A stretch of DNA of 64,000 nucleotides from positions 9,608,196-9,672,195 of the forward strand of contig CAVNZM010000008.1 in assembly GCA_963693365.1 (NCBI GenBank). The letters are read 5' to 3'. The DNA is from Amoebidium appalachense (taxonomy: Eukaryota > Protista > Ichthyosporea). The position numbers and the translations under genes were made by a program. Numbering within the stretch: position 1 is the first letter of the stretch; every line of letters begins with the position of its first letter. The notes beneath the pieces are model-generated. The model saw only the letters and a list, made by a program, of their open reading frames with translations. It made no database searches and was not told where the DNA came from. Shown in pieces: positions 3,320 to 63,326 of the stretch.

Positions 3320-4765
3320 CTAATAGTATTGATCAGAGAGCAACATCCGTGCCGTAGACCACCTCTGGAACGGGTCACCTCCCACGAATGCCTTTGGGCC
3401 CTGCTTGATATATTTGGCCATCTCCGATGGTGTGAGCAGGCACGAATCGAGAGCCTTTGTCACCGCCTCCCGATCCAGATTAGCACCGATCATAACGATC
3501 TCCTGCCGGCGATCTAAGTAGGTACCAGAGTAGGGCCCCTTCTCCAACGCGTAAATAGCGCCGGGGGGCAGCATGTTACGGGGGAATTCACACATCCATA
3601 TGCCGCCAAGGGTGAACTGGAGAAAAACGCCTGCCTGGGACCACTCCCCAATTACGCTCTCGCGGCTGGCGAGCCACACGAACCCCTTCGAGCGGAGAAC
3701 CGTAGCAAAGGGGCCCTTCTTCTTGCTCTCGACGCACTCTTGCCGCCGATCTTTCCCGTCAATGTTCGTGCCTTCCTCCCTCTGCGACTGCTCCTGAAGA
3801 ATAAACGACTCATAGAAGAGATCGTGAAGACGTACGGGGTGGAACGGGCGTATGGCGCGGTAGACAAACGACGTGATCCCGTACTCCGGGTTGTCTGGGT
3901 CCGCCTGCCCCTCGTTCAAGCTGTCCATCCACCCATCGCGCTGCCTCGCCTCTTCAATATCAAACAACCCCGTGTTGAGGATCTTGTTAAGGTCGACCTT
4001 GGCGTAGTTTGCCGTGAGGATCTCCGCCTTGGGGTTTAAGGTGCGTATCAGCTGCGTGATCCGGGAGACCTCCTCCGCACTCACCATATCAACCTTGTTC
4101 ACCACTACGACGTTTGCCCATTCCAACTGGTCATTCAGCAGGTCGACAATGTTTCTCTCGTCGTCCTCCCGGGTGGAGTCTTCATCGCTAATCTTCTTGT
4201 AGGAGTTAAAGTTGTTAAAGAAATTCGCCGCATCCACAACGGTAACCGTGGTGTCGAGCCGGGCCTGGCTGGTGAGCGACTCGAGCGCCGACGCCGGGAC
4301 CAACTTGGTTTTACCACGAGGCCCGCCCTCCGGTACCATCATCCTCGCCCCATCCTCCACCTTAAACGCAAACGTCTCCGCGACCTCCTTGGGTTCGCTG
4401 ATTCCCGAACTCTCGATAATGAGATAGTCGAAATCGCCGGTCTTTGCCAACGCCGCCACCTCGTCGAGTAAGTCACCGCGAAGGGTGCAGCAGATGCAAC
4501 CGTTTTGCAGCTGTATCAGCTTCTCTTCCCGTTGAAGAATTTTCCGGTTGGTTACTATCTCCGCGTCTATGTTCAGTTCTGCCATGTCGTTAACTATGAC
4601 GGCGCATTTCAGGCCTTCTTTGTTCTTGAGAATGTGCTCGAGAAGAGTGGTCTTTCCCGAACCAAGAAACCCGGAGAGGAGAGTCACCGGGAGCGGCTTC
4701 GGTGTTGGTTGGGCGAGCTCGATGGCGCCGGTCGTCTTGGGCCGCTTGGTTTGCATGGTAGGCAT
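3320..4765 (-). CDS. COG0523 / CobW-family (G3E) P-loop GTPase, putative zinc metallochaperone, intronless, 481 aa
   Basis: Walker A GFLGSGKTT, AVIVNDMAELNIDA, metal-binding GCICC, Walker B LIIESSG, NKVD (NKxD), and a CobW C-terminal domain (RPFHPVRL...RSKGFVWLASR...DRRQEIVMIG). Confidence 0.96.
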   Translation of the reverse strand: MPTMQTKRPKTTGAIELAQPTPKPLPVTLLSGFLGSGKTTLLEHILKNKEGLKCAVIVNDMAELNIDAEIVTNRKILQREEKLIQLQNGCICCTLRGDLLDEVAALAKTGDFDYLIIESSGISEPKEVAETFAFKVEDGARMMVPEGGPRGKTKLVPASALESLTSQARLDTTVTVVDAANFFNNFNSYKKISDEDSTREDDERNIVDLLNDQLEWANVVVVNKVDMVSAEEVSRITQLIRTLNPKAEILTANYAKVDLNKILNTGLFDIEEARQRDGWMDSLNEGQADPDNPEYGITSFVYRAIRPFHPVRLHDLFYESFILQEQSQREEGTNIDGKDRRQECVESKKKGPFATVLRSKGFVWLASRESVIGEWSQAGVFLQFTLGGIWMCEFPRNMLPPGAIYALEKGPYSGTYLDRRQEIVMIGANLDREAVTKALDSCLLTPSEMAKYIKQGPKAFVGGDPFQRWSTARMLLSDQYY

Positions 4766-6278
4766 GGTGCAATATATTTGAGGGGGAATGCAGAGGGGAA
4801 AGCTTGTGTTGTTTTGGTGTTATTACGTAATATAAACAGGAAACCTGCACCGAGGCTCTACCTAATAGGCCTTTGGTAGACCAGTGTGTGTGTATTACGT
4901 CGTCAAAACGAATATACCAATGCTTGGGCATATACTGTACAGCAGTATATAGGTGGGATTGTCGACCAAAGATGTTTGTTGTTGTGTGTGTTGTTGCGAG
5001 CGCTGTCTGTCTCGATCACTGTGGACAAACTTCTGGCACCGGCTGGCAATTTATACATCCGACTTGGCAGTCGCCATAAACCCAAACTTTCAAGAACTTG
5101 TGGAATTTTGCAATGAGGAATCTAATCTCATGATGATGATATGTATGTATCCTTCAGTCCTCAAAACCTCGGCTGAAGTGGAACCCTGAACGCCCAAAAA
5201 AAAATAAAAAAATAAAGCAAAAGGCGCTTGAATAGTATACCTGAAGAGTTTTCTGTTTAAAAAATATTTTCGGGCATTGATTTGCAGTTTAACCAAACTC
5301 TGAGTTTCATTTTCCTGTAACCACTTGGAAAGCATTCCACATGGCACTGACGCTTATATACAGCAAAAACAACATCTTATTTCGTAACCTTTGTTACATA
5401 AGCTGTTTCTCTGGTGCGAGATGTAACTGGTGCACATATTCATTAATTCGGAATTGTGAAGCACACCTTTCCTGCGGGGGTTTCATCTTGAATTGGTTTT
5501 GGGAGAATATAGGTGCACTCCGAACCAATCAAAGCGACGAAGGGCCCTGACGTGTTTTTGCCAATCCCAGGGTTCCTCAGGCGACATCCGCGCATTCCTT
5601 TACAACTTTGTGCGTGTCACCTCCCAGAGGTTGAACATTTACAAATTTTACGGATCCCCCTAATATTAATAACAATTTAAAAAACATGTTGCGCTGTGAT
5701 CATGACACGGCGACGGCACACTGCCCGTTCTGGCTTCTGACTTCACCCACCACCTTGTCATGCCCACGGCATGCATACACGGAATACACAGTTCCCCAGT
5801 GCCCACCCAAAGGTTGACTGGTGCTAACTAAAGGTTTACGGAAAGTACCGGCATTGCTGCAAACACACAAACGCACAATTAAAAACGCACGCACGCACAC
5901 ACACACACACATGTACACAAACACACACACAAACACACACACACACATGTGTACATGTCGGATCATGAGGTATATATATGTAAGTAAGGTACACATTGTA
6001 CAGACATGCAATACAATCATGAAGAGGTGTAAGTTGCATGTACATATAAGACGATAAGCACATGTACAGAGATACTTAAAGGTACGTACAACACATGTAC
6101 AGATGCGAGGCCCCTGGTGATCCACTTTGTTAACAGATACATGTGGTACATCCGATAGTACAGACCATATTAATGTATACGTACATATGCATCCACAAGG
6201 AATCAACAACAGGTAGAAAAGGAAATATATAGGGGTGATCATTTTACGACACAGTGCATGCATGGCGGTGTTGTTGAA

Positions 6279-7263: not shown

Positions 7264-8149
7264 TCGGGGCAAGTGACCCCCCCCCCCCCCCCCCCCCCCC
7301 CCCCGCCCCTCCCGCCCCCTTCCTCCTCCCCGGCCTCCCACCTCTTAAGAGTGGGGATGTCACACCCATCAATCCGGCTGGCGGGGGCATTTAAAGGTGG
7401 GAGCCGGGGCCCCCACCACACACTGTGGGGCCCAAGCTTGGTGGGTTCCCCCGGGGGCCGGTGAAGAGGGATTGGGAGCGGTGGCCCGAGGAGGGGGGAG
7501 AGGGAGGGGGAGAGAGGGAAGGGGGGGGAGGGCCGGTTAGAAGGAGGGGAGAGGAGGGAGGGTTGTGTGTGTCACGGTGTGTGTGTGTGTCTGACACTCG
7601 ATGATGGCATTTTTATGTATACTGTGTGGAGGACCCGGGCCTACTAATATTAATAGGGGGTAAGTGGGTCGAAGAAGGGAGTACTAGTCGGTCGATTCGA
7701 AGGCCCACCGTACACATTAACCGGAGCGGCCCCGCCGCATATATACTGTTGTGACTCCATAAATTGGCATGGAAATATTTTCTTAGCTCAGAAGGAAAAC
7801 ATTAGGCTACAAATATCATACCGTTCCGAATATTATTTCTGGATGCCGAGTGAGTCAGTGGATGGCATGCATGCATATGCTCATCGGTACTGTAGGCCTA
7901 GGAAGCTTGGAACGTCAGTCTTGGATTCATATGTCTTGCGGAGGGTTCACTGAAGAACATTTCCGCAGAGTCTAGACTCGGCGCTTCTACTCACTGACAG
8001 CTAAGTACTCAATTGATTTTTAAATAAACAGCTTTGATACCACATTGCATACAGTAGGCTACATCAACGTCGTGTATGAAGAATCTCCGGCTGTGTTTTC
8101 ATGTTTGATCCGGTGAAGGATGACTATGGTCCCTATGGATGATTATAGG

Positions 8150-15195: not shown

Positions 15196-18100
15196 ATGTC
15201 TGGCCAACGCCAGTTTAGGCTCTCCGTTAGCGCTCTTCGCGCTCTTCTGGAGGAGCCACACAACACACAAGTTGAGATCCTGAAGAAGGCCGGGGATGTG
15301 GAGGGGATCGTTGAGGCCCTGTATGTTGACCTGGAGAGTGAGTTTCCCCTTCCCCATGTTTTGATATATGGACACATACATACACATACGCACGCACACA
15401 AGCACACAAGCACACAAATAATTACATGCTCATGCTCACTTCCACACTCGTGCACAAATCTTGGATCGAGTATATGGGGGGAAGTGTAGGTGTCTCAATT
15501 CTTTGACAGAGTTCACCCACGATATTTCTCTTCGTTATTGTCTTGAGCTTTTCCTTCTCTGTATCCTGTTTGCTAATCCATCTTTTCTTCTTGCAGAGGG
15601 TCTATCAAGCAACGATGTAGCCGATCTCAAGCAGCGTGTTGCCGTGTACGGTGAGAACCGTATTCCCGTTGCCAAGTCCAAGTCCCTTTTCCGCCTTATG
15701 TGGGAGGCGCTCCACGATCCGATCCTTATTATCCTTATGATTGCCGGTGCCGTTTCTCTTATCATTGGTATGGCGTTTGAGGAAGACAAGTCCCACGCGT
15801 GGATTGAAGGCGGTGCTATTCTCCTCGCCGTTATTGTCGTCACCCTCGTTGCCTCCCTTAACGATTGGCAAAAGGAGCGCCAGTTTAAGAAACTCAACGC
15901 CGTCAAGGAGGATACCAAGGTCAGCGTACTGCGTGACGGCCACGTTGCCCAGGTGTCCAAGTTCGATGTTGTAGTTGGCGATGTTATCATCCTTGGGCAG
16001 GGTGACGAGATCGTTGCCGATGGGTTGGTTGTGGAGTCCTCGGGGCTTAAGGTTAACGAGGCATCACTCACCGGTGAGTCGGACGATATCAAGAAAGACC
16101 GCAACAGCAGCCCGTTTGTTCTCAGTGGCACGCAGGTCATGGACGGTATTGGCCGGATGGTTGTCTTGGCAGTCGGTCAGAATTCCCAAACCGGTATTAT
16201 CACTGCACTTATTCAGGGAAAGCGGGCAGCGAAATCGGCGAAAGCCGAAACGATGGCTGATGTTGCCTCCACGTCTTCCCCCGCTGACGAAAAGGAGAGG
16301 TCTCTGGTTTCTAACCCTGACGCTAACGTTATTGAGCTCGGTGAGACCAAGGCTACCACCCACGCGTTTTCTGGGCCAGCGGCGGTTGAAACGAACGAGG
16401 TTGAGGTTGATAGTGACGAGGACGAGGAGGAGCTGACGATTCTTCAGAAGAAGCTGGCCCGGCTGGCCACTCTTATTGGTTACCTCGGTCTTAGCGTTGC
16501 CATCCTCACCGTTTTGGTCCTCGTTATTCGCTTCTGCGTCGAGAACTACTCCACCCGCGGGTTTAAGAAGGAGGACTTGCGCGAATTCCTCAATTATTTC
16601 ATCATCGGTGTTACGGTCGTGGTTGTGGCTATTCCCGAGGGTCTGCCCCTGGCCGTGACCCTGTCTCTGGCCTTCTCCATGAAGAAGATGCTCAAGGACA
16701 ACAACCTTGTTCGTCACCTCGACGCCTGCGAAACCATGGGTGGTGCCACTGCCGTTTGCTCCGATAAGACCGGCACGCTCACCACTAACCGGATGACCGT
16801 TGTGCGTGCACAGCTCGCCGATACACCCACCGTCGACGCTGCAAAGTCTATTGCCGACGCGGCGCTTTCCCCCACGGTTGTCATCTGCCTGATTGAAGGT
16901 ATCGCCCTCAACTCTACCGCCGAGGTGCAGCGCCCCGAGTCTGGTGTCGGCCTTTTGGAACATGTCGGCAGCAAGACTGAGTGCGCGCTACTGCAGTACG
17001 CCATGGAGAACGGCTACGAATACGTTCCCATCCGCCACGCACACAAGCCCCTCGTCCTCTACCCGTTCAACTCGGCGCGCAAATCCAGCGGTGTTGTTGT
17101 GGCCACGACCCTCGTTGACGGCCAGTCCGGTTTCCGCCTTCATGTCAAGGGTGCCTCCGAAATTGTCCTCGGTCGCTGCACGCAGATTGTCATGCCAGAC
17201 GGTAGTGTCCGCCCGCTCGACGGCGGGACCCGCCAGGCTCTTCTGCAGAAGATTGAGTCGTATGCGATGGAGTCTCTCCGCACGCTCTGCCTCGCCTACC
17301 GCGAATTCACAGTCGACCGCAACTGGGAGACCGTTCAGGCTGAAGAGATTGACGGGGATTTGGTGCTGATTGCTCTTGTTGGTATCGAGGACCCGCTCCG
17401 CCCGGAGGTGCCCGGCGCCATTGAGAAGTGCCGCCGCGCCGGAATCACTGTGCGCATGGTTACCGGCGATAACGTCGTCACGGCTACTGCGATTGCAAAG
17501 AAGTGCGGTATTCTCATTAGCGAGGACGATTTGGTTATGGAGGGCCCCGAGTTCCGCAAGCGTGTTTTGGACTCCAACGGCAACATCATCCAGTCCGAGG
17601 TCGACAAGATTTGGCCCCGCCTGCGCGTTCTCGCCCGCTCTTCCCCCACCGACAAGTACACTTTGGTCTCCGGTATGGTCAACACCAAGGTTAACCCCCA
17701 GGTTGTGGCTGTGACGGGGGATGGTACCAATGATGCCCCCGCTCTCAAACGCGCCGACGTTGGTTTTGCCATGGGTATCCAGGGCACTGCCGTCGCCAAG
17801 AACGCCGCCGACATTATCATCATGGACGATAACTTCAGCTCAATTGTTGCCGCCGTCAAGTGGGGCCGCAACGTGTACGATAGCATCGCAAAGTTCGTTC
17901 AATTTCAGCTGACGGTGAACATTGTCGCGTTGGTGCTTGCGTTCACATCCGCGTGCATCGTGCGCCAGTCGCCACTCACCGCCACCCAGCTTCTGTGGAT
18001 CAACTTGGTGATGGACACGCTGGCGTCTCTCGCTCTCGCCACGGAGAAGCCCACCGAGGCTCTTCTCGACCGCAAGCCTTATGGCCGCAACAAGTCTCTT

Positions 18101-18844
18101 ATCTCTCGCCGCATGTGGGTTTTCACGCTGGGCCATGCCGTGTTCCAGATGATTCTCCTGTTCACACTCACTTTCGCCGGTCACAAGTTCTTTGACATCA
18201 GCAACGGCAAGGGGCAGGACCGCTCTGTGCACTACACCATCGTGTTCAACACGTTTGCACTGTGCCAGTTTTTCAACGAGGTCAACGCGAGGAAACTTCA
18301 CGGCGAGCTGAACGTCTTCAAGGGGTTCCTCTCCAACAAGTACTTCCTCGCCATCATGTGCATTCAGTTCGGCGTGCAGATTCTGATCGTGCAGTTCGGC
18401 TCCCGCGCTTTCAACGTCATGGGTCTTACGGCCGGCCAGTGGGCGTGGTGTTTCCTGTTTGCGTGCCTCGAAATTCCCTACAACGTTCTTCTCGGGTGCC
18501 TTCCCAAGATCATCCCTAAGAGCTGGAAGGTGTCTATGTCTCGTCCCATGGCCAAGTCTTGGTGGGTCAACCGCGCCACCCGCGTCCGTCGCGCTTTCGG
18601 TTTCAAGCCAAAATACCGCGAGAGTCCGTGCAATAGCATCAACGCCGAATGTGGGGATGATGTGCTTTTGGTTAGCAGTATGCCATATTCCAAGGTGGTG
18701 CATAAGGATATGTATGAGGCGACACTTTTCGCAATGCTCGCAAACACCAAGTCTCCGTCGACTCGGTTGCGTACGGCGGCAAGAATCGTTTGCTATAGGC
18801 AAAAGTGTGAGTTTGTGGATAAGGGCAAGGGGCCCCTCTTGTAG
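15196..18844 (+). CDS. PMCA: Plasma-membrane-type Ca2+-transporting P-type ATPase (P2B); exons 15196-15337 and 15597-18844, ~1129 aa
   Basis: Motifs TGES, VVVAIPEGLPLAVT, DKTGTLT, KGASE, MVTGDN, TGDGTNDAPAL, QFQLTVN, LLWINLVMD and FNEVNARK. The phase-1 intron GTGAGT(15338)...TTGCAG(15596) joins LYVDLE-K-GLSSND in frame. Confidence 0.97.
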
Positions 18845-21174: not shown

Positions 21175-21416
21175 AGGGCCCAACCACATCGGCAGAGTGA
21201 ACTTGCAAAAGGCAGAATTATTTTGCAAAAGCAGAATCAATCTGCTAAAAGCAGAATGATTCTGCAAACACAGAATCATATGCTTTTAGCAGAATCACTC
21301 TGCTTTTAGCAGAATTATATACCGAGAAAGCAGAATCACTCTGCTTTTAGCAGACTTATGCAAAAAGCAGATTTATTCTGCTCGGAGCCAGGTATTAGCC
21401 GATGTGGATGGGCCCT
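21175..21416. mobile_element. Foldback MITE, copy 2 (shorter, opposite orientation to copy 1)
   Basis: Same AGGGCCCAACCACATCGGC...GCCGATGTGGATGGGCCCT termini and GCAGAAT..TTCTGC internal units. Exact 6-bp flanking repeat CTTGAG (21169-21174, 21417-21422). Confidence 0.9.
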
Positions 21417-24764: not shown

Positions 24765-25429
24765 ACCCCACCCCTCCCCCCCTACCCCACCTCACCCCCC
24801 CCCCCCCCCTCTCCCCCCTTTCCCCACATCGCCCCACTCCCAAGGAAGAGGCTCTGTTCAGTTGTTTTGATTTCGATTGTGGTTTGGTTTTGGAGCTCTT
24901 GTAAATGGGCTGGGTTCCATGTTTGCCACCCTCTAAGGCATTCTTATCCCCCCTCCCTCCCCCCGCCCCCCCTCCTCCAAGCCCTCCTCAACCGCACCCC
25001 CCATTTTCCCTCATCCCACCCCTCCCTCCCCCCTCCCCCCCTTTCCTCCATTTCACATTTGCAAATTTCACAGGAATGGTGGCCGGATGTTGAATCCTCG
25101 TTCTTCGAGCTGAGTGAAAACTACGAGGTGTACCGGCAGTACATCAGCAGGCTCAGCGAGGCCCAGAATGTTCTGGATGACGGCTACAAGAATAACCCTG
25201 GGGTAAAGGCATGGCTGGACCAGCGCCAGAGGGTATGCTATATATATATAGATGTATAGATGTGTAAGTGTATGGATGTATAGATGTATGGATATATGGA
25301 TATATGGATGTATGGATGTGTGGATGTATAGGTGTACATGTGTGTGTACATGTTTATATAAGTGTGGGTGAGTAGGTGGGTGGGTGGGAAGTGAGTGGGT
25401 GGGTGGGTGGGTGGGTGGGGATGGGGCTG

Positions 25430-25522
<93 letters not shown>

Positions 25523-28170
25523 CGCGCGTGGGTGTGTGTGCTACATTATTTCATACCTCCCCCCTCCCCTCCCCCCCCCCCCCCCCCCCCCCCCCCCAAC
25601 ATCGTTAGGATGAAGGAGCACCTCCTTGCTTTCCCCACCGGCATTGCTCAACCTCGCCTTTCACAGATTGCTGCGTGCCTCAAACGTGAATTACGTAGTC
25701 GTTTTGAACTTGAACGTGTTGACATGTCGCAACCCCATGTGATGTTGGTGTCTGTGTTTCATAACTCCGGGCTCGATAGAATCCCTTTGCAACGCATCAT
25801 CAAAGACAAAGAAATACATGCTCTCCTGCCGCTTGAAATGCGTAAATTCCGTATCTCTGCTGTGTGGAAATATGTGTCTACCCTGGGCTACACCACTATC
25901 AACTGCAAACACACCGCACGACTCCCGCAGGACACCATAGCAAACATCCATGCACAACCCTGCCCTTGCAACGACCCGCACTATGCGCCATACGTACACC
26001 CACAACACGGACACGTGCTTACATCGCGCTTAGACATTCCCGGCCTGCCCGCAGACTTTGCATCGCTCATGCATTTTGGAACCAAGTTCCGAATGCAGGT
26101 CGAGCAGACGGAGGACACCACCTGTAGCAATTTATTGACACAGGCGTTGCAAAGTTTCTGTAACAAGATGTACGATCTTGGTATGGCAGCTTATCCCTCT
26201 TTGAATCCGTGGGCAGCCGCCGTCTTTACTAAGTGTCGCCCCTTCCTGCCATATGCACAACACGCACCCAACACACACACCGTACCACAAGCTTCTGTGC
26301 TTCTACTGCGTCGCTTCCAAAAACGTTTCGTAGTCACCACAATGGATAAAGCTAGCAACACGTTCGTGATCGTCTGCAAAAAACACTACGTTAGCAGCAT
26401 TACAGCCGAACTGCATGCACCTGCCGCAACATACACCGTCTGCAACACTGCACCAAAAGACATTGTTGCACAACACCTTGCATTTCTCAAAACACATGAC
26501 ATAAAAGGCACACCAGGACGTCGCACTGCACGCTTGCCCACATTTCAGGCCATAGTTAAAATGCACAAAACACCACCCACCTTCCGTTTCATTGCCAACT
26601 CCTCTGCCACATCACTTGAACCTCTCTCCCGCCTTCTCACTAGTGTGTTTAAGTTCGTCTCCCCTGATGTCGAACGTATGTGGTGTGATGTTGTCAAACC
26701 CCACCTGCCACACAACACTAGCTCTTGGATTCTCACGGATAGCACCGCACTCACACACACAATCAACGCCCTTAACCGTACCACACGCCAACATGAAAAT
26801 ACGCCCGTGTCTGTGTTTGATTTTTCCACACTCTACACCAAGATTGACTTGCATGATTTGAAAGCTCGCCTCACTACACTGATTGACGCAATATTTGTCA
26901 AAAAATGCACGGACGCTCGCAAACCACACATGTTTATTAAGAAAACCGGCTCCACGTTGTCCTGGGTGGATCGTGTAGATGATGATTCCCAGGATGATTC
27001 CTTTGAGCCTAAAGAACACTCTCTACATCTCTCTAAGGCACAGCTTGTGGATTTTCTATGTTTCCTCGTAGATAACATATATGTTGTGTTTGGCGATACC
27101 CTCTACAAACAGGACATTGGTATCCCCATGGGTACAAACTGTGCTGTTTTCTTGGCTAATTTCTATCTCTTTACTTATGAGTTGGATTTTGTTCGCAAGC
27201 TTATTGCACACGAACGCATTGATGTCTTGGTAGATTTTCAGTTTACTCGCCGCTACATAGATGATTTGATCTCCCTTCATAATCCTCGCATTCTCTCCCA
27301 CCTCTATTTAGAAGATTGTGATTTCGGTCTATATCCCAAGACCAGCCTTCAACTCAACCCTGCCGGTTCCTCCCCCTCTGTCCCCTACCTCGACTTGCAT
27401 ATCACCTGCACTAATCACGGCATTCACACAACCATCTACAACAAGCTCGACACACCCACGTTCAATACACTAGACATCGTTCGTTTCCCACATCACGACT
27501 CATTCATCTCCCGCACTGCAAAATACGGCATCATGACAAGTCAAATGCATAGCTACCAGCGCAAATGCTCCACACTTGCTGCATTCACCACATGCACTGC
27601 ACGACTTGCTAAAACATTGCTTAACAAAGGCTACTCGTTTAGACTCTTGCACCACAAAATGCACAGCTTTCTCGCCACACACCCGCACATATACCGTGGC
27701 ATTCACTCCTCTCACATACTCTCCATCATCACTAAAAAGATCAACACTCCCTAGTCCCCCACTCTATCCCGGTTCCCCCCCCCCCCCCCCCCCCCCCCTC
27801 CCCCCCCCCCCTACCAGCCCCTACACCTCCCCCCCCCCCCCCCCCCTCCCCCCCCCCCCCTCCCTCTCTCTCTCCCTCTCTCTCTCCCTCTCCCTCTCTC
27901 TCCCTCCCTCTCTCTCTCTCTGTCTCCCTCTCTCGCTCTCTTTCGTTCTCTCTCGTTCTCTCCCTCCCTCTCTCTCTCTCTCCCTCTCCCCCTCTCCCCC
28001 CCCCCCTTCCCCTCCCCCCCCCCCCCCCCCCCCCCCCCCCTCTCTCTCTCTCCCCCCGCTCCTTTTCCCAAACAATTCCCCCGCCGTTCTTCTTTCTCAG
28101 CCGGCTAGGTTTTTTGGGTTGCCTGGTAAGTTTTGAAATGGAGGTCTCGTCTCTGATCTGTCCACCACAG

Positions 28171-28216
<46 letters not shown>

Positions 28217-28241
28217 CCCTCCCTCCCTCCCCTCCCTTCCC

Positions 28242-28319
<78 letters not shown>

Positions 28320-28826
28320 CCCTTCTCCTCCCCCCCCCCCCCCCCCCCTTCCCCTCCTACCTTCTTTTTCCCCCCCCTTCCCCCCCCCCCCCCCCCTGGC
28401 CAAACCCTGTATACACTCTTCTCATCAGCAGGTCTCTAACCCACTCTGCAGAACGTTTTACGCATTTCTCCCCTCGGAGAACTTGGTCGTTGGTGCGTTT
28501 TTGTCTGACATCTAACGACTCTGCAGGGTCCCCTGAGACTACTGACACTCTAACATTCCCTCCCCTCTCTTACTTCCCCCCCCCCCCCCCTCCCCCTTTC
28601 CCTCCTCCTTCCCCTCCCATTTTCTCTGCACACCCAACAGGTCTTAACCAGATCTGCACATCGTTAGTCACAATCTTCTCACATATATGAGAGAATGATC
28701 GTATTGGTACGATTTGTCTAATATCTGACGATTCTGCAGCATCCCTAAGACCCCCCTCCCCCTCCCCCTCCCCTCCCCCCCCCCCCCCCCCCCCCACCTT
28801 CTCTCTCTCTCTCTCTCCCTCTCTCC

Positions 28827-28925
<99 letters not shown>

Positions 28926-28930
28926 TTCCT

Positions 28931-28966
<36 letters not shown>

Positions 28967-29027
28967 GCGCCTGTTGTTTTGCTTGTCATTTGTTGTTCTG
29001 GTTGATTACCTGTAATCTTCGCTTATT

Positions 29028-29062
<35 letters not shown>

Positions 29063-32000
29063 TGTGCGGGGTTGCACATACCGGTGTCTACTTTTCTTCT
29101 TACTGTTTTTCTCTCCACACACTTCATCTGTCCACTTCTGCATACCCCCTTTCATAGCTATAGACACACTTCACACATTGCGTTACGCGCACGCATGCAC
29201 ACACCGCTCTGTTGGCGACAGCTCCCTTGGAACCCATGCGGCATGTTACCCGCCGGCGTAACATAACTCGGACTATCGGTTTGGCTTTTTTCAAGCCCAA
29301 AGCAATGGGTGATACCATATTTCCGGCTGACATCCGGGGGCATAGCTTTCCGTTCGAAGACGATAAAGTTCCGCCCTAGTAAGCGTGTTACTACCCTGCG
29401 GCGTGGGTCAAATCTCATATTTTCCCCTCTGATTACGAATTCTGTGGCCTTCGGGACTTAATTCTTTTCAGCTGGTGTAGTATGTTAGCCAGGGAAGTAT
29501 CGACTTAGGTATCGACGGGGGAGCTTCCTAGAAGCCCCGTCTCCTGAGTTCCTATCTATATTTTTCTTGCTTCTGCTTACTGCTGCAACTTTAACCCCCG
29601 GCCTTTCCCACTGCCCTTGCCTGCATAAGCAACCCTGCTCGTCTCTGATCAAGACGGGTGACCTACTCATGTTCAAGTGAAACAGTATCTGAGTTGGGTT
29701 TCGTTAACGAGGGGAATAGGTCGAAACTCGGGTACTGTGGATGACGTGGGCCCCCCCTGAGGATGGGCTCTGCTTATTATGCATACTCTTTATGTATGGC
29801 TTGCATTCTGCATCGTGTTATCCGTTTGTTCTTGTGTACTTCGTACTTTTTGACGCATTCAAACCCCCCCCCCCCCCCCCCCCCCCCCTCTCACACACAC
29901 AACCACCACAACCACCACCACCACGCCGCCACCACCACTCCCCCATTCTTTTGGAATTTTCAATCTTCTTCCCTCCTGAAAACGGCCCACCCTTGCACCA
30001 GAATAGCAGCCTCCCCCCCCCCCCCCCACCCCCACCCCCACCCCCCTTTCACTTCATACACGGACACTAACACACACACACGCACAAAAATCCCTCCCCA
30101 TGCCCCCCCCCCCCCCCCTCCCCCCCCCCCCCCCCCCCCCCCCCCCCACACACACTCAAACAGCAATCTCTCCTCCTTCTTTCTCCCTACTCCCTATCCG
30201 TTTCCACTCACCCGTTTTTCCAACCTTTCTTCCCTTACACACTCGCAGGCACTAGGGCTTGGGCTCAACGTGTTTGCATACATCGTCAAGCCATTCCAGC
30301 GCATGACAAAGTACCAATTACTTCTGGACGCCATGCTCAAGCAGATCCCCCCTGACGACCCAAAATACGGACAGCTCTACCTGGCCTCGCAGGCTACAAA
30401 GGTCTCAAAACACAAGCATCCGCACAGACGCGTGGGCAAATGAAAAATGTGTGTTGCAATTATGTGTTGGGCGGGGGGAGAATGGGGGGGGGGGGAAGAG
30501 GGGGCGCGGTGGGGGAGGGGGAGGGGAGGGGAGGGGGGAGGGGCCAGATATTTGCAGCTGACCAAGACCATGGTGGTCATAGACCAGAAGTTAACCATTT
30601 TTTCAATTTATTTCCCCTGGTTTTCCCACAGAGCATGCATCTATAGCTAACCGAGACCAAGGTAGTCATAGACCAGCGGTTTGCCGTTTTTCCAACTCAT
30701 TTCCCCGGTTTTTCACAGAGCATGCATCCTAGACCAGCAGTTTACCATTTTCCCAACTTATTTCCCCCGGTTTTCCCCACAGAGCATGCAGCTGCAACTT
30801 AACGAGGCCAAGGGTGTGATGGACCAGCAGCTTTCTCTTTTGCGCAAAATCAGCAACATGCCCATATCTGATGCAAATGCACGCCACACACTACTTGGTC
30901 AGCTGGTCTTGGAGGCCGACGTAGTCGAATCCCCTAATGTATATAACACTTCCCCCCCCCCCCCCCCCCCCCCCCCCGCCGCCGCCGCCCAGCACGAACA
31001 CAGACGCACGCAGACGCGCACGCATGTGTGCTTGCACACATGCACACGCACACACACATGCACGTATGCATGCGCGCGCACACACACACACATACACATG
31101 CACATGCACGCACACGCAAACACACACAAAAACATAGGCACACAGACACATGCGTGTGCACACACACACAGACACTTACTCACGTATGCACGCATGAGGT
31201 CCGGTCCTTCCTACACACCCAAGCACCCACACACCCACCCTAAAACTAGCTCCTCCCCCCCCGCCCCCTCCCCCCTCGCCGCCGCCCCAACACACACACG
31301 CGCACACAAACACTCGCACACACACAACCACCCACCTTATACCCACACCCTCCAACACCACAGGCAAAACAACGGGACAGGCATCTTTTCCTCTTTGAAA
31401 ACGGTCTAGTGGTGTGCAAGCGAATGGGTGCGGCGGGGGGCGCTCAGGGGCAATTCCAATACCGCTACGGTATACACGTAGATTGGATCATTTCGACACG
31501 ACAAGTTCCGGAATCACCACAACATTTCGAGGTTTCGTGCGTGCGTTTGGGTCTGACGGAAAACGAAGCGGTGAGGCAAAACGTCGGGACGAGTTTGGGT
31601 GGGAGTAGGAGGTGTGTGGTGTATAGTATGAGGGATGAAAACATAGCGCATAGGTGGCAGAATCTCGTTACTGTGAGGTTGTTTGAGCTTACGTTTGTAA
31701 GGTCTACTGCTCCTACGTCGGTGGGGGGGATTCACCACCCCCCTGTCTCTCCTACACCGAGTGGGTTACCTGCACTTCAGGAAAAGGTAGTTTGTGTGTG
31801 TGTGTGGGTGTGTGTGAGTGGGTGGGTGGGTGGGTGGGTGGGTGGGGGGTTGAGTGGGGCGGTGGGTGGGGGGGGGAGGGCAGGATGGGGAGGGAGCGGG
31901 GGGTGGGGGGGGGGGGGTGAGGGGGAGCTGCCCGGGGGGGGGGGGGGGGGGGGAGTGTTTGGTTGAGTGTGTGTGTGTGTGCGTGTGTGTGTGTGGATGT

Positions 32001-32298: not shown

Positions 32299-32413
32299 AC
32301 ACACACACACATACACACACACAATCACACACTTTTGCAAGCTGCATTGTTTTGTTCGTCGTGAATGTGTACTTCATAGTCTGTAGCACATTCTAACCCC
32401 CCCTTCCCCCCAA

Positions 32414-38605: not shown

Positions 38606-41232
38606 ACACTCACACACTCACCCTCCCCCTCCCCCTCTCACCCACGCACACACACACACATACTCCCCACACCCACACATCCTCCACACACACGCGGGCG
38701 CTCTACACCCTTACTTACCTCCACACCCCACAGCACGAATACCCGGAGGAACCCCACCACCACGACGACTCCCAATACCACCACGACACCGCCGATACGG
38801 ATCACCACGACCCATCCATAGAACAGCGTGCTCCACAAATCGGCGATGAAAGCTATGACCAACCGTCGTTTCTCGGTCCAGACAGCGACGCGTCATTTGA
38901 CAGAATGGAAACCTCCGTCCCGGGACAGAACGACGAAACACACCAACAAGAACACGTCCCCACCTCACCTTCCTCACCACCGCCCGTCCACCCCCCTGCC
39001 TCCCCACCATCTTCCGTCACCCCCACCCGTTCTATCACCCCTCCTCCTTCCACCGTTCCCGTACGCCCGGCTTCGCCCCCTCGCCCAACCCGTCCGGCCA
39101 CACCCCCACGCACCACCCCTCGCGGCTCGCCAATTTCTTCCCCGAAAGCAGTGCACCGGTCCCCCGTTTCTTCTCCCAAAGCTGGTTCCAAATTTGCGTT
39201 GTCTCAACCCCACACGGAGCAACAACAACAACAGCAACAACAACAACAACGACAACCTACACCCATGGAAATATCACACGACGAAGAACCCCCCCGGGAA
39301 ACACCCCCAGCAGCCGCAATTTCAGAGGAAAAACCGCCTGTTTCATCCTCGGTGGAAAACAAAGAACGCCTCGTTCCGGTTCCGGCGGTGCGTGTTCCAC
39401 CCACGCCAACGCATGGAGCAACCGTTCCCGAAACTAATCGGGAGGATGAGAAGGAGGTATCAGGGGCTAAGAGATGGGGTCTGAGGAAAACTTCGGGAGA
39501 CCGTTCACCGGGTATCAGCCCAACCCCATCAGCCGCCGAAAACGAACTTATGGCGATTTTCAACCGGCGACAACAGAGGAAAAGCGACGCGTCGGCGACG
39601 GAAACTCAATCGCTCACCACCGCCCAAATTTCGGCAGAATCACCGCATACCTCTCCCATCCCCCAACACCCATCCCCACCCCCGGCGGCAAAACCAAAAC
39701 CAACCCCGGCGACCCGGCCCCCGACGCGGGGCCCGTCGTCCCCGTCGACCTCCGCTGTCCAATCAGATCTATCCGCTACCGTTGCCATGGAAACGGATCA
39801 TGAGGAGCCAATTAAGTCGCCAGCCCCTAAACCTCGTAGCCTGTCATCGCCGCCGCTCCCAAAACATGATCTGATCCCACCCGCTCGCCCTAACCCTCCC
39901 GAAGAACCCACTATTTCACAGGAAACAAAATCTCAACCGGTACCCGCCGGCCGTCCTTCTATCTGGGCTAAACCCGGACTTGCTCCCAAACCTGCCGTAG
40001 CCGAAAAACCCACCATTAACTCCAAACCCACCCCACCAGCCAAGCCCACACCCCCTATCCCTTCCACCCAACCATCTACTCATTCAACCCCCACCCCGGC
40101 AACCAAAATTTCGTCGGAACCTTTTTCGACGGGGACCCAACCTTTACCGTCCCCACGGAAAACATCGGCCGGCGAAATCCGAACGCAGCCACAAGAAAGT
40201 TCCCCTCCGGCACCAGTTCCGGCATGGAGAAGTGGTTTGAGGAAAACACCAATCGAGGTTGGAGTCCCGAAAGCGCCGGCCCGGAGCGATCTGTCGTGGT
40301 TGAATCGAAAATCGGAATCGCAATCGCAATCGGGATCGGCGCAACCGGTAGCCGAATCGAGCCCGGCAATCGCTCCGGAAGCCGCGAAGCCTCTTCCAAG
40401 TCCGACGCCCAAATTTGCTGCAGATATGCAACAACCCACACCCGCACAAAACCCCCCCCAAACCCCACCCAAAGTTTCTCCTCCCGCTGAAACCACGAAA
40501 ACACAACCGGTGGCTTCAAAACCATCACCCCGTCCTCCGGTACAACCAAAACCGGCACCGGCCATCGCGCCAAAACCGGCCATTGCGCCAAAACCAGTCC
40601 CTGCGCCAAAACCGCTTCCGAAGCCCGTGCGGACCCCGGCCGAGGAGGAAAAACGACAGAGGGAGAAGGAGGAGGAAAGGAAACGTGCAGATAGAGAACA
40701 AGAGGATTTGCGAAGGAAAAAGGCGAAAGAAGACGAAGAACATAGATTGGAGAGGGAGAAATGGGCGCGAGATTTGGAGGAGCAAAAACGGAAACACGAG
40801 TTGGAAATCGCCGCGAGCAGGGCCGCGGAAGCGGCAAAACTTGCGGAGATCGAAGCGAAATATCAAGCGGCGGCCAAAGAAGCAGAAAAGGAAAACACAA
40901 ACGTTACAACGGAGAAACCAAAACCAGATGTGGATGTTTGGGAGAAAAGATGGAGTTCTGTGCACGGGGTAACAGGGACTCCGCGTGGGGAAGGGGAGTT
41001 CGAAGGGGCGGGTAAGGGTGGCGCGTTTGAGGGTAGGAAGGGGCAGAGTCTGTTGGTGCGTCGGGGCACGGTCAACATGATGGAGTCCCAGGCGAGAATG
41101 ATGGCTCGGTTGAATTCCGTCCGCAATTCAATTTCTTCGGGTACGTTACTACGCGCCCCCTTCCCCCCCCCCCCCCCCCCCCCCCCCCCCGCCACCACCA
41201 CCACCACCACTCAGACACACACACACCATTCC

Positions 41233-57780: not shown

Positions 57781-62851
<5,071 letters not shown>

Positions 62852-63326
62852 CTAAAGTCCAAACCCCCCATCAGAATAAATAACGACCAATCATATCATC
62901 TTTCCTTTGGTTCTAGGCTTGAACCTTTAACTAAAGTCCAAACCCCCCATCAGAATAAATAACGACCAATCATATCATCTTTCCGTTGGTTCTAGGCTTG
63001 AACCTTTAACTTAAGTCCAAACCCCCCATCAGAATAAATAACGACCAATCATATCATCTTTCCGTTGGTTCTAGGCTTGAACCTTTAACTAAAGTCCAAA
63101 CCCCCCATCAGAATAAATAACGACCAATCATATCATCTTTCCTTTGGTTCTAGGCTTGAACTTTTAACTAAAGTCCAAACCCCCCATCAGAATAAATAAC
63201 GACCAATCATATCATCTTTCCTTTGCTTCTAGGCTTGAACCTTTAACTAAAGTCCAAACCCCCCATCAGAATAAATAACGACCAATCATATCATCTTTCC
63301 TTTGGTTCTAGGCTTGAACCTTTAAC
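62852..63326. repeat. 79-bp minisatellite, 6 near-identical copies
   Basis: Unit CTAAAGTCCAAACCCCCCATCAGAATAAATAACGACCAATCATATCATCTTTCC(T/G)TTGGTTCTAGGCTTGAACCTTTAA starting at 62852, 62931, 63010, 63089, 63168 and 63247. There are no unique spacers. Confidence 0.95.

Follow-up and report, generated by a model that had tools for sequence, protein, structure and literature searches.

The window, the whole 64,000-nt stretch of DNA that was analyzed, holds a 5'-truncated Penelope-like element (PLE) inserted in sense orientation within an intron of a gene for a DH-PH RhoGEF protein (window 25074-31471, + strand). The features of this region are:

25598..29863, + strand: 5'-truncated Chlamys-type Penelope-like element, in the host intron and flanked by poly-C
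25598..27754, + strand: ORF remnant with CPC (CxC) motif, DKA motif and reverse transcriptase (RT; GIPMGTN, YIDD)
29784..29863, + strand: 3' tail of the element, terminating at poly-C
25074-25229 (weak), 30249-30401 (RhoGEF, E 4.5e-10) and 31364-31471 (PH), + strand: exons of the RhoGEF gene
60923..61262, - strand: short copy (copy 2) of a second subfamily, with the motif at 61197-61029, U17 at 61123, G12 at 61091 and C3 at 61057

The element and its relatives in the window

The endonuclease part was absent from the ORF remnant, having been lost through the 5' truncation. The 718-aa ORF used as a query was 100% identical to part of the 938-aa protein P0002 (EukProt transcript assembly), which carried all features of the Naiad/Chlamys group: an N-terminal GIY-YIG (E 3.4e-4, below the Pfam cut-off), CxC, a DKA-type motif and the RT. 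The P0002 endonuclease lacked the CCHH cysteines, with none between GIY and YIG. In a quick tree of 32 rows, characterized by long branches and built without the published Chlamys RTs, P0002 was placed with the CCHH-less rows (SH-aLRT 99). Chlamys elements have been described as having GIY-YIG without CCHH, (C)n/(CA)n targets and 5' truncation (Craig et al., 2021; PMC8557442, available text). Like them, the element has an N-terminal GIY-YIG without CCHH, CxC, DKA, poly-C at both ends and 5' truncation, and no canonical hammerhead ribozyme (HHR). On its sequence it belongs to the Naiad/Chlamys clade of PLEs and is of the Chlamys type. It differs from the elements in the available text of PMC8557442 by the split hammerhead described below, and its host, to judge by the matches of one host gene, probably belongs among the unicellular relatives of animals, whereas the Chlamys hosts named there are an alga, a spike moss and a slime mould. 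Ichthyosporeans are a group missing from the hosts given in that text.

Copies of the element were sampled via contigs from two DNA runs, and the copy number was high, with 8,924 and 9,776 contigs on one 383-nt stretch. Several contig joints led from the 3' end of the element back to 29620-29755, the pattern expected of partial tandems. Two stubs of related elements that consist of the tail only, without the motif, were present at 32335-32403 (+) and ~58503-58560 (-). Elsewhere, the window contained long uninterrupted frames for a PMCA-type Ca-ATPase (15422-18844, +; best named full-length matches ichthyosporean, ~51%) and for a CobW protein (3320-4819, -), a cluster of inverted and tandem repeats common to 880-1372 and 21175-21382, and a 79-nt tandem array close to the window end (62851-63326).

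Anatomy and covariation of the RNA

The RNA ahead of the tail is described here in the customary hammerhead core numbering. This numbering agrees with the one drawn in Eckert et al. (2023). The parts of the RNA in copy 1 are:

29623..29635, + strand: P1 5' strand, closing helix (29623-31 and 29633-35), from co-folding
29637..29659, + strand: P2 hairpin, 8 bp, loop CUGAUCA, one pair broken in copy 2
29660..29664, + strand: stem II 5' strand, off the core, G10.1 at 29660, two double changes
29666..29673, + strand: P4 5' strand, linking the stem II strand with the stem I strand
29685..29698, + strand: block S, with stem III 5' strand, U16.1 at 29694, U17 at 29695 and stem I 5' strand GGG (29696-98)
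29718..29735, + strand: block G, with stem II 3' strand, G12-A13-A14-A15.1 (29723-26) and stem III 3' strand
29743..29750, + strand: P4 3' strand
29754..29763, + strand: block C minus the stem II strand, with stem I 3' strand (29754-56) and CUGAGGA (C3 at 29757, A9 at 29763)
29765..29782, + strand: P1 3' strand, from co-folding

From 5' to 3' the order is P1, P2 hairpin, stem II, P4, stem III, U16.1-U17, stem I, linker, stem II 3' strand, GAAA, stem III 3' strand, P4 3' strand, stem I 3' strand, CUGAGGA and P1 3' strand. The blocks follow each other as S-G-C, a non-circular order that does not match the circular orders CGS, GSC and SCG of types I, II and III, which have a three-way junction. 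Both copies contained the core CUGAGGA, GAAA and a GUU triplet (NUH, U16.1-A15.1); GUU triplets also occur among the listed PLE hammerheads (PMC8557442 File S2, available part). The predicted cut site lies between stem I (3-4 bp) and stem III (9-10 bp), which connect it with the strands of the core. Stem II is the covarying 5-bp helix GACCU/AGGUC, whose first pair is the canonical G10.1-C11.1. Its partner strand is drawn from ~100 nt upstream and not from the bases after CUGAGGA: a direct stem II at that position had 0 bp in both copies, with no base downstream of CUGAGGA paired to those ahead of GAAA. When the flanks were co-folded, P1 and P2 formed in copy 1, copy 2 and a distant locus introduced below (L078), with two U residues facing each other at the junction. 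The linker between stems I and II was ~19-22 nt in the window copies and 5 nt in L078 and in a second distant locus (L085). The P2 loop held a palindrome, UGAUCA (window 29645-29652; 61176-61169 on the - strand; L085 ~193-201), with UUGAUCAA in copy 2 and L085. It is a possible kissing-loop dimer signal, and the L078 loop is not palindromic.

Copy 2 (61205-61027, -) was 77.7% identical to copy 1 over 179 nt, and identity between the two was 75% in the motif, 53% upstream and 55% in the tail. A model of 46 pairs over both copies had 91 of its 92 pair cells paired (98.9%), with five double and five single changes between the copies and at least one double change in each of stem I, stem II, stem III and P4. 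P4 (29666-73/29743-50) carried one double and two single changes, the stem III helix (29685-94/29726-35) one double and three single changes, and the stem II helix (29660-64/29718-22) two double changes. In stem I (29696-98/29754-56; GGG/CCC in copy 1, GGAG/CUCC in copy 2), which forms a second crossing helix, the third pair changed from G-C to A-U, and copy 2 gained a fourth pair. P1 showed no covariation because it is invariant between the window copies. Pairing fell to 33-42% once the 3' partners were slid, and the observed covariation was matched in 14 of 500 shuffles, in a test on two sequences from which the structure itself had been derived. Nested minimum free energy (MFE) folds were weak against shuffles (z -1.28 and -2.29) and did not recover the pseudoknots. 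A rival hairpin was predicted over the core (-3.4 and -6.0 kcal/mol) and was present in the MFE fold of copy 2. The RNA is real and conserved.

These results bear out most of the structure given in a preliminary description of this DNA, which had placed a pseudoknotted RNA with a multi-helix fold, shared by two diverged copies, at the 3' end of a PLE. The helices, including P4 in both copies, were found where it had put them, and UGAUC, CGAAAC and CUGAGGA, reported as invariant, were identical in the two copies. Its helix P5 is real and corresponds to stem III, except that its innermost pair, U29695-A29725, more plausibly represents the hammerhead residues U17 and A14. The two compensatory pairs of its crossing helix were recovered as double changes, and the second crossing helix, the covarying stem I, had been missed. 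The statement that the motif is essentially all that the short copy retains was too strong: the motif makes up ~170 of the ~340 nt of copy 2, and the two stubs hold only the tail.

Contig variants, tabulated unphased from two subfamilies that cross-map, revealed three states of stem II across the family: GACCU/AGGUC, GACCC/GGGUC and GGCCC/GGGCC. At the position of copy 2, ~95-99% of the contig depth had GACCC and GGGUC, and in copy 1 the changes 29664 T>C and 29718 A>G were each seen at 3-4%. The GGCCC/GGGCC of copy 2 is, as far as such variants tell, a second compensated state of stem II. A variant that appeared to break a P4 pair, 29746 G>T, is best read as the letter of subfamily 2 in an A-U pair, brought in by cross-mapping. 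No core position varied at 1% or more in copy 2, and U4 was the sole varying core position in copy 1 (2.3%, in one run); core invariance lends weak support, because many non-core positions were invariant too.

The split layout in related loci and published elements

An RT-based scan of metagenomes yielded 528 confirmed loci, and the best 80 (266,516 nt) were searched with a descriptor derived from the window, which itself demanded H and not G at the cut site. The split layout was found in five of the best 80 of 528 loci, in three families and always on the sense strand of the RT. Three matches (L021, L023 and L027) lay directly 3' of the ORF and belong to one family, 94-95% identical; those in L078 and L085 lay upstream of the ORF, at the expected position of the pseudo-LTR. 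In L078 and L085 the endonucleases are of the Naiad type, and the RTs are ~26% identical to that of the window element. None of their stem sequences is shared with the window, yet the block order, G10.1-C11.1, NUH and P4 are kept. The co-fold of L085 differed from that of the window copies. The L021/L023/L027 family was without P2, had ambiguous peripheral pairing and a stem II beginning with U-A. Across all seven descriptor matches the detached stem II had 4-6 bp; the direct stem II had 0 bp in six and 1 bp in L085. L088 carried the motif of L078 in truncated form. L021 (7340-7900), L023, L027 and L018 form a Chlamys-like family with a split core in which stem II has two alternative partners; L021 has additional CUGAnGA motifs downstream at 7739 and 7872, and block S is deleted in L018.

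On shuffled sequences the descriptor gave four matches in 40 and 20 in 200 (0.1 per shuffle, at most one each). These scored 12-19, and the five real loci scored 18, 18, 18, 22 and 25. Shuffles of the window gave no match in 100, the window's own matches being there by construction. No match was found in 75 of the best 80 of 528 loci, or in 23 of the 26 loci among them whose 3' flank reached 600 nt. Several other candidates were set aside. A search of the best 80 of 528 loci for intact hammerheads in any order returned four weak matches with short stems, attributed to chance, and two further descriptor matches in the window (39481-39552 and 28410-28481) were dropped, being without stem II and P4. 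Viral contigs held no RT relatives, and their 13 and 7 pattern matches all failed the descriptor.

The supplement of Craig et al. (2021; PMC8557442) was searched for core heptamers, layouts were judged by eye, and names were assigned by means of the header that followed and the sequence of entries in File S1. Among heptamers not broken across lines, and with 7 of the 43 CTGAAGA places covered, at least six entries showed the split layout, with stem II starting on a G-C pair: Naiad_Amil, Naiad_Anas, Naiad_Obim, Naiad_Ovul and two entries in parts 12 and 19. In Naiad_Amil and these last two, P1 directly followed the core and P2 directly preceded stem II. Naiad_Bfor fitted the split layout loosely, and Naiad_Aacu had mismatches in stems I and II. 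The tails of Naiad-1, -2 and -3_Nbra (Nippostrongylus; File S5) appeared by eye to be intact type CSG with P4 and all four helices, and in Naiad-2_Nbra stem II, GUCCC/GGGAC, directly followed the core. The green-algal Chlamys consensus passages contained no clear split case by eye.

Searches with existing models gave little. Rfam had no match to the window at the gathering score, and a clean match to a known ribozyme class, as the preliminary description had proposed to look for, was absent. At E values up to 10, three sub-threshold matches fell in 29500-29900; a partial match to Hammerhead_1 (14.2 bits, E 2.4) aligned GACCU/AGGUC as stem II ahead of CGAAAC. Telomerase RNA combines a template with a pseudoknot and triple helix to which the RT binds, and its Rfam models had no match in the window. 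Measured against the consensus features of the HDV, twister, pistol and hairpin classes, the core letters fit the hammerhead, and Rfam gave no match for these four, which were rejected. A covariance model built from the two copies recovered both of them, and none of the distant loci, among 81 sources.

Topology, alternatives and possible function

The core letters are complete, though their order is scrambled and one helix stands apart from the core, and the RNA is therefore likely to cut itself, in a shape that standard searches miss. We consider it probable that this RNA, with the hammerhead core letters in S-G-C order and stem II detached, is self-cleaving, with a predicted cut after U29695 that would trim the retroelement transcript. 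The best reading is a hammerhead variant with a new topology, neither type SGC as defined nor telomerase-like. The preliminary description had found no fit to hammerhead types I-III, in agreement with the S-G-C order and the Rfam result, and had suggested an undescribed ribozyme. A ribozyme is likely and its form was not found in print, although it does not lie outside the hammerhead class: the core letters and stems I-III can all be placed if the blocks may follow each other as S-G-C and the strand may be interrupted between A9 and G10.1.

With type-SGC ribozymes (HRIMA-1 and variants) the RNA shares the S-G-C order, two core pseudoknots and all core letters, as well as the link between a stem I strand and a stem II strand and P4 as a stem I-II interaction helix with joined far sides (PMC10085705, available text). 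It differs in that the SGC stem II strand directly follows CUGAnGA, whereas here it stands at the 5' end and P1 and P2 bridge the gap, and in the I-II linker, typically 3 nt in type SGC versus ~19-22 nt in the window copies (PMC10085705). The cyclic block order is that of type CSG, and joining A9 to G10.1 and opening past stem III would turn the split form into CSG; CSG ribozymes, unlike this RNA, have an intact block C and no four-way junction (PMC10085705). The type I hammerheads in the pseudo-LTRs of canonical PLEs resemble it in core and in location, near the 3' end or in the pseudo-LTR, and differ from it in their circular order, lack of core pseudoknots, very short stem III and often dimeric action (PMC8557442 File S2; PMC6765202; available parts).

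In vitro cleavage has been shown for ribozymes of both type SGC and type CSG (Eckert et al., 2023; PMC10085705). The available text of that study defines block C as CUGAnGA together with the stem strands on either side of it. It puts the insertions between CUGAnGA and these stems in known hammerheads at no more than 1-2 nt, which counts against the present reading. The CSG set there comprises only two, metagenomic sequences, and the SGC source is metatranscriptomes and not genomes of known organisms. The split fold would break the assumption that block C is uninterruptible, and searches that use this rule would therefore undercount. Craig et al. (2021) stated that Naiads and most Chlamys are without canonical HHRs, that some retain a core fitting no descriptor, and that there are 'HHR_core' and 'half-core' motifs, which the available text leaves unexplained (PMC8557442). 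If true, the split fold would account for these motifs and restore a ribozyme to a very abundant retroelement clade reported without the usual hammerhead. For the wider proposal, we judge the case to be evenly poised: that this is a seventh topology beyond the six-permutation scheme, built on a four-way junction, acting as the ribozyme by which much of the Naiad/Chlamys clade ordinarily processes its RNA, in hosts as far apart as unicellular relatives of animals, corals and octopus, and clamping the cut RNA ends for circularization or RT template jumping.

A search of the literature, with most subscription papers outside it and an earlier description therefore possible, found no paper on the split form or on permuted hammerheads in Naiad or Chlamys elements. 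Hammerhead variants with extra helices are reportedly credited also to Weinberg et al. 2015, said to be reference 13 of a later paper. In its available text that paper (PMC13725137) credits its references 13, 30 and 31 with such variants, reference 30 being Eckert et al. and reference 31 PMC10162972. The available text of PMC10162972 and PMC7936874 held nothing resembling the split form, and that of a 2026 retrozyme preprint names Naiad only for classification.

Among the alternatives, it is unlikely that the fold is right and the single RNA inactive, with cutting dependent either on dimer formation via the palindromic P2 loop or on a protein that opens the core hairpin. The palindrome is invariant in the window copies and recurs in L085, a competing hairpin is predicted over the core, and many PLE hammerheads cleave as dimers (PMC6765202, available text). 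Against this, the palindrome is missing from L078, and the usual reason for dimer cleavage is absent because stem III is long in the window RNA. Very unlikely is a non-cleaving structured RNA, perhaps hammerhead-derived, that binds the RT or positions the template, even though 168 nt separate the motif from the 3' end, the expected start of reverse transcription, conservation is higher in it than in its flanks and its core linkage is unorthodox. Against such a role, elements with ~26%-identical RTs retain G12, G8, C3, A15.1-U16.1 and a non-G at position 17 while every stem sequence is altered; unsplit type-CSG versions exist in the same clade, no template-like sequence was seen, and the tail-only stubs exist. 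The telomerase-like pseudoknot for RT binding or template positioning that was proposed earlier likewise received no pointer from the tests made here. Least likely is that the RNA is a plain type-SGC hammerhead whose stem II, directly after CUGAGGA, is vestigial, with the crossing helix as a side structure or off state. In its favor, a U-C mismatch and then one pair are possible in the window RNA, and natural stem II may be 1-2 bp or begin with a U-U mismatch (PMC3088659, available text); against it, the detached helix is the one that is 4-6 bp in every descriptor match and covaries.

In the split hammerhead, the GACCU/AGGUC helix would take its usual hammerhead place on the G12-A9 face, P1 and P2 would replace the A9-G10.1 backbone link, giving a four-way junction, and P4 would take the part of the stem I-II tertiary contact. 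The split form would represent the CSG/SGC cycle circularly re-opened at a new point in block C, A9/G10.1. The RNA would fold to a hammerhead core and cut after U29695, by the chemistry assumed from the class, and the hairpin over the core may serve as an off state. Hammerheads in PLE pseudo-LTRs are thought to release unit-length RNAs from tandem transcripts and perhaps to permit circles (PMC6765202, available text). By analogy with other PLEs, the tail of one copy in a partial tandem would be the pseudo-LTR of the next, and two cuts in a tandem transcript would give a unit-length RNA. The two RNA ends could re-pair via P1, II, P4 and III (~35 bp), and products held in this way would favor ligation to a circle or a jump of the RT across the nick. 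The ribozyme, if active, would also cut the pre-mRNA of the RhoGEF host gene.
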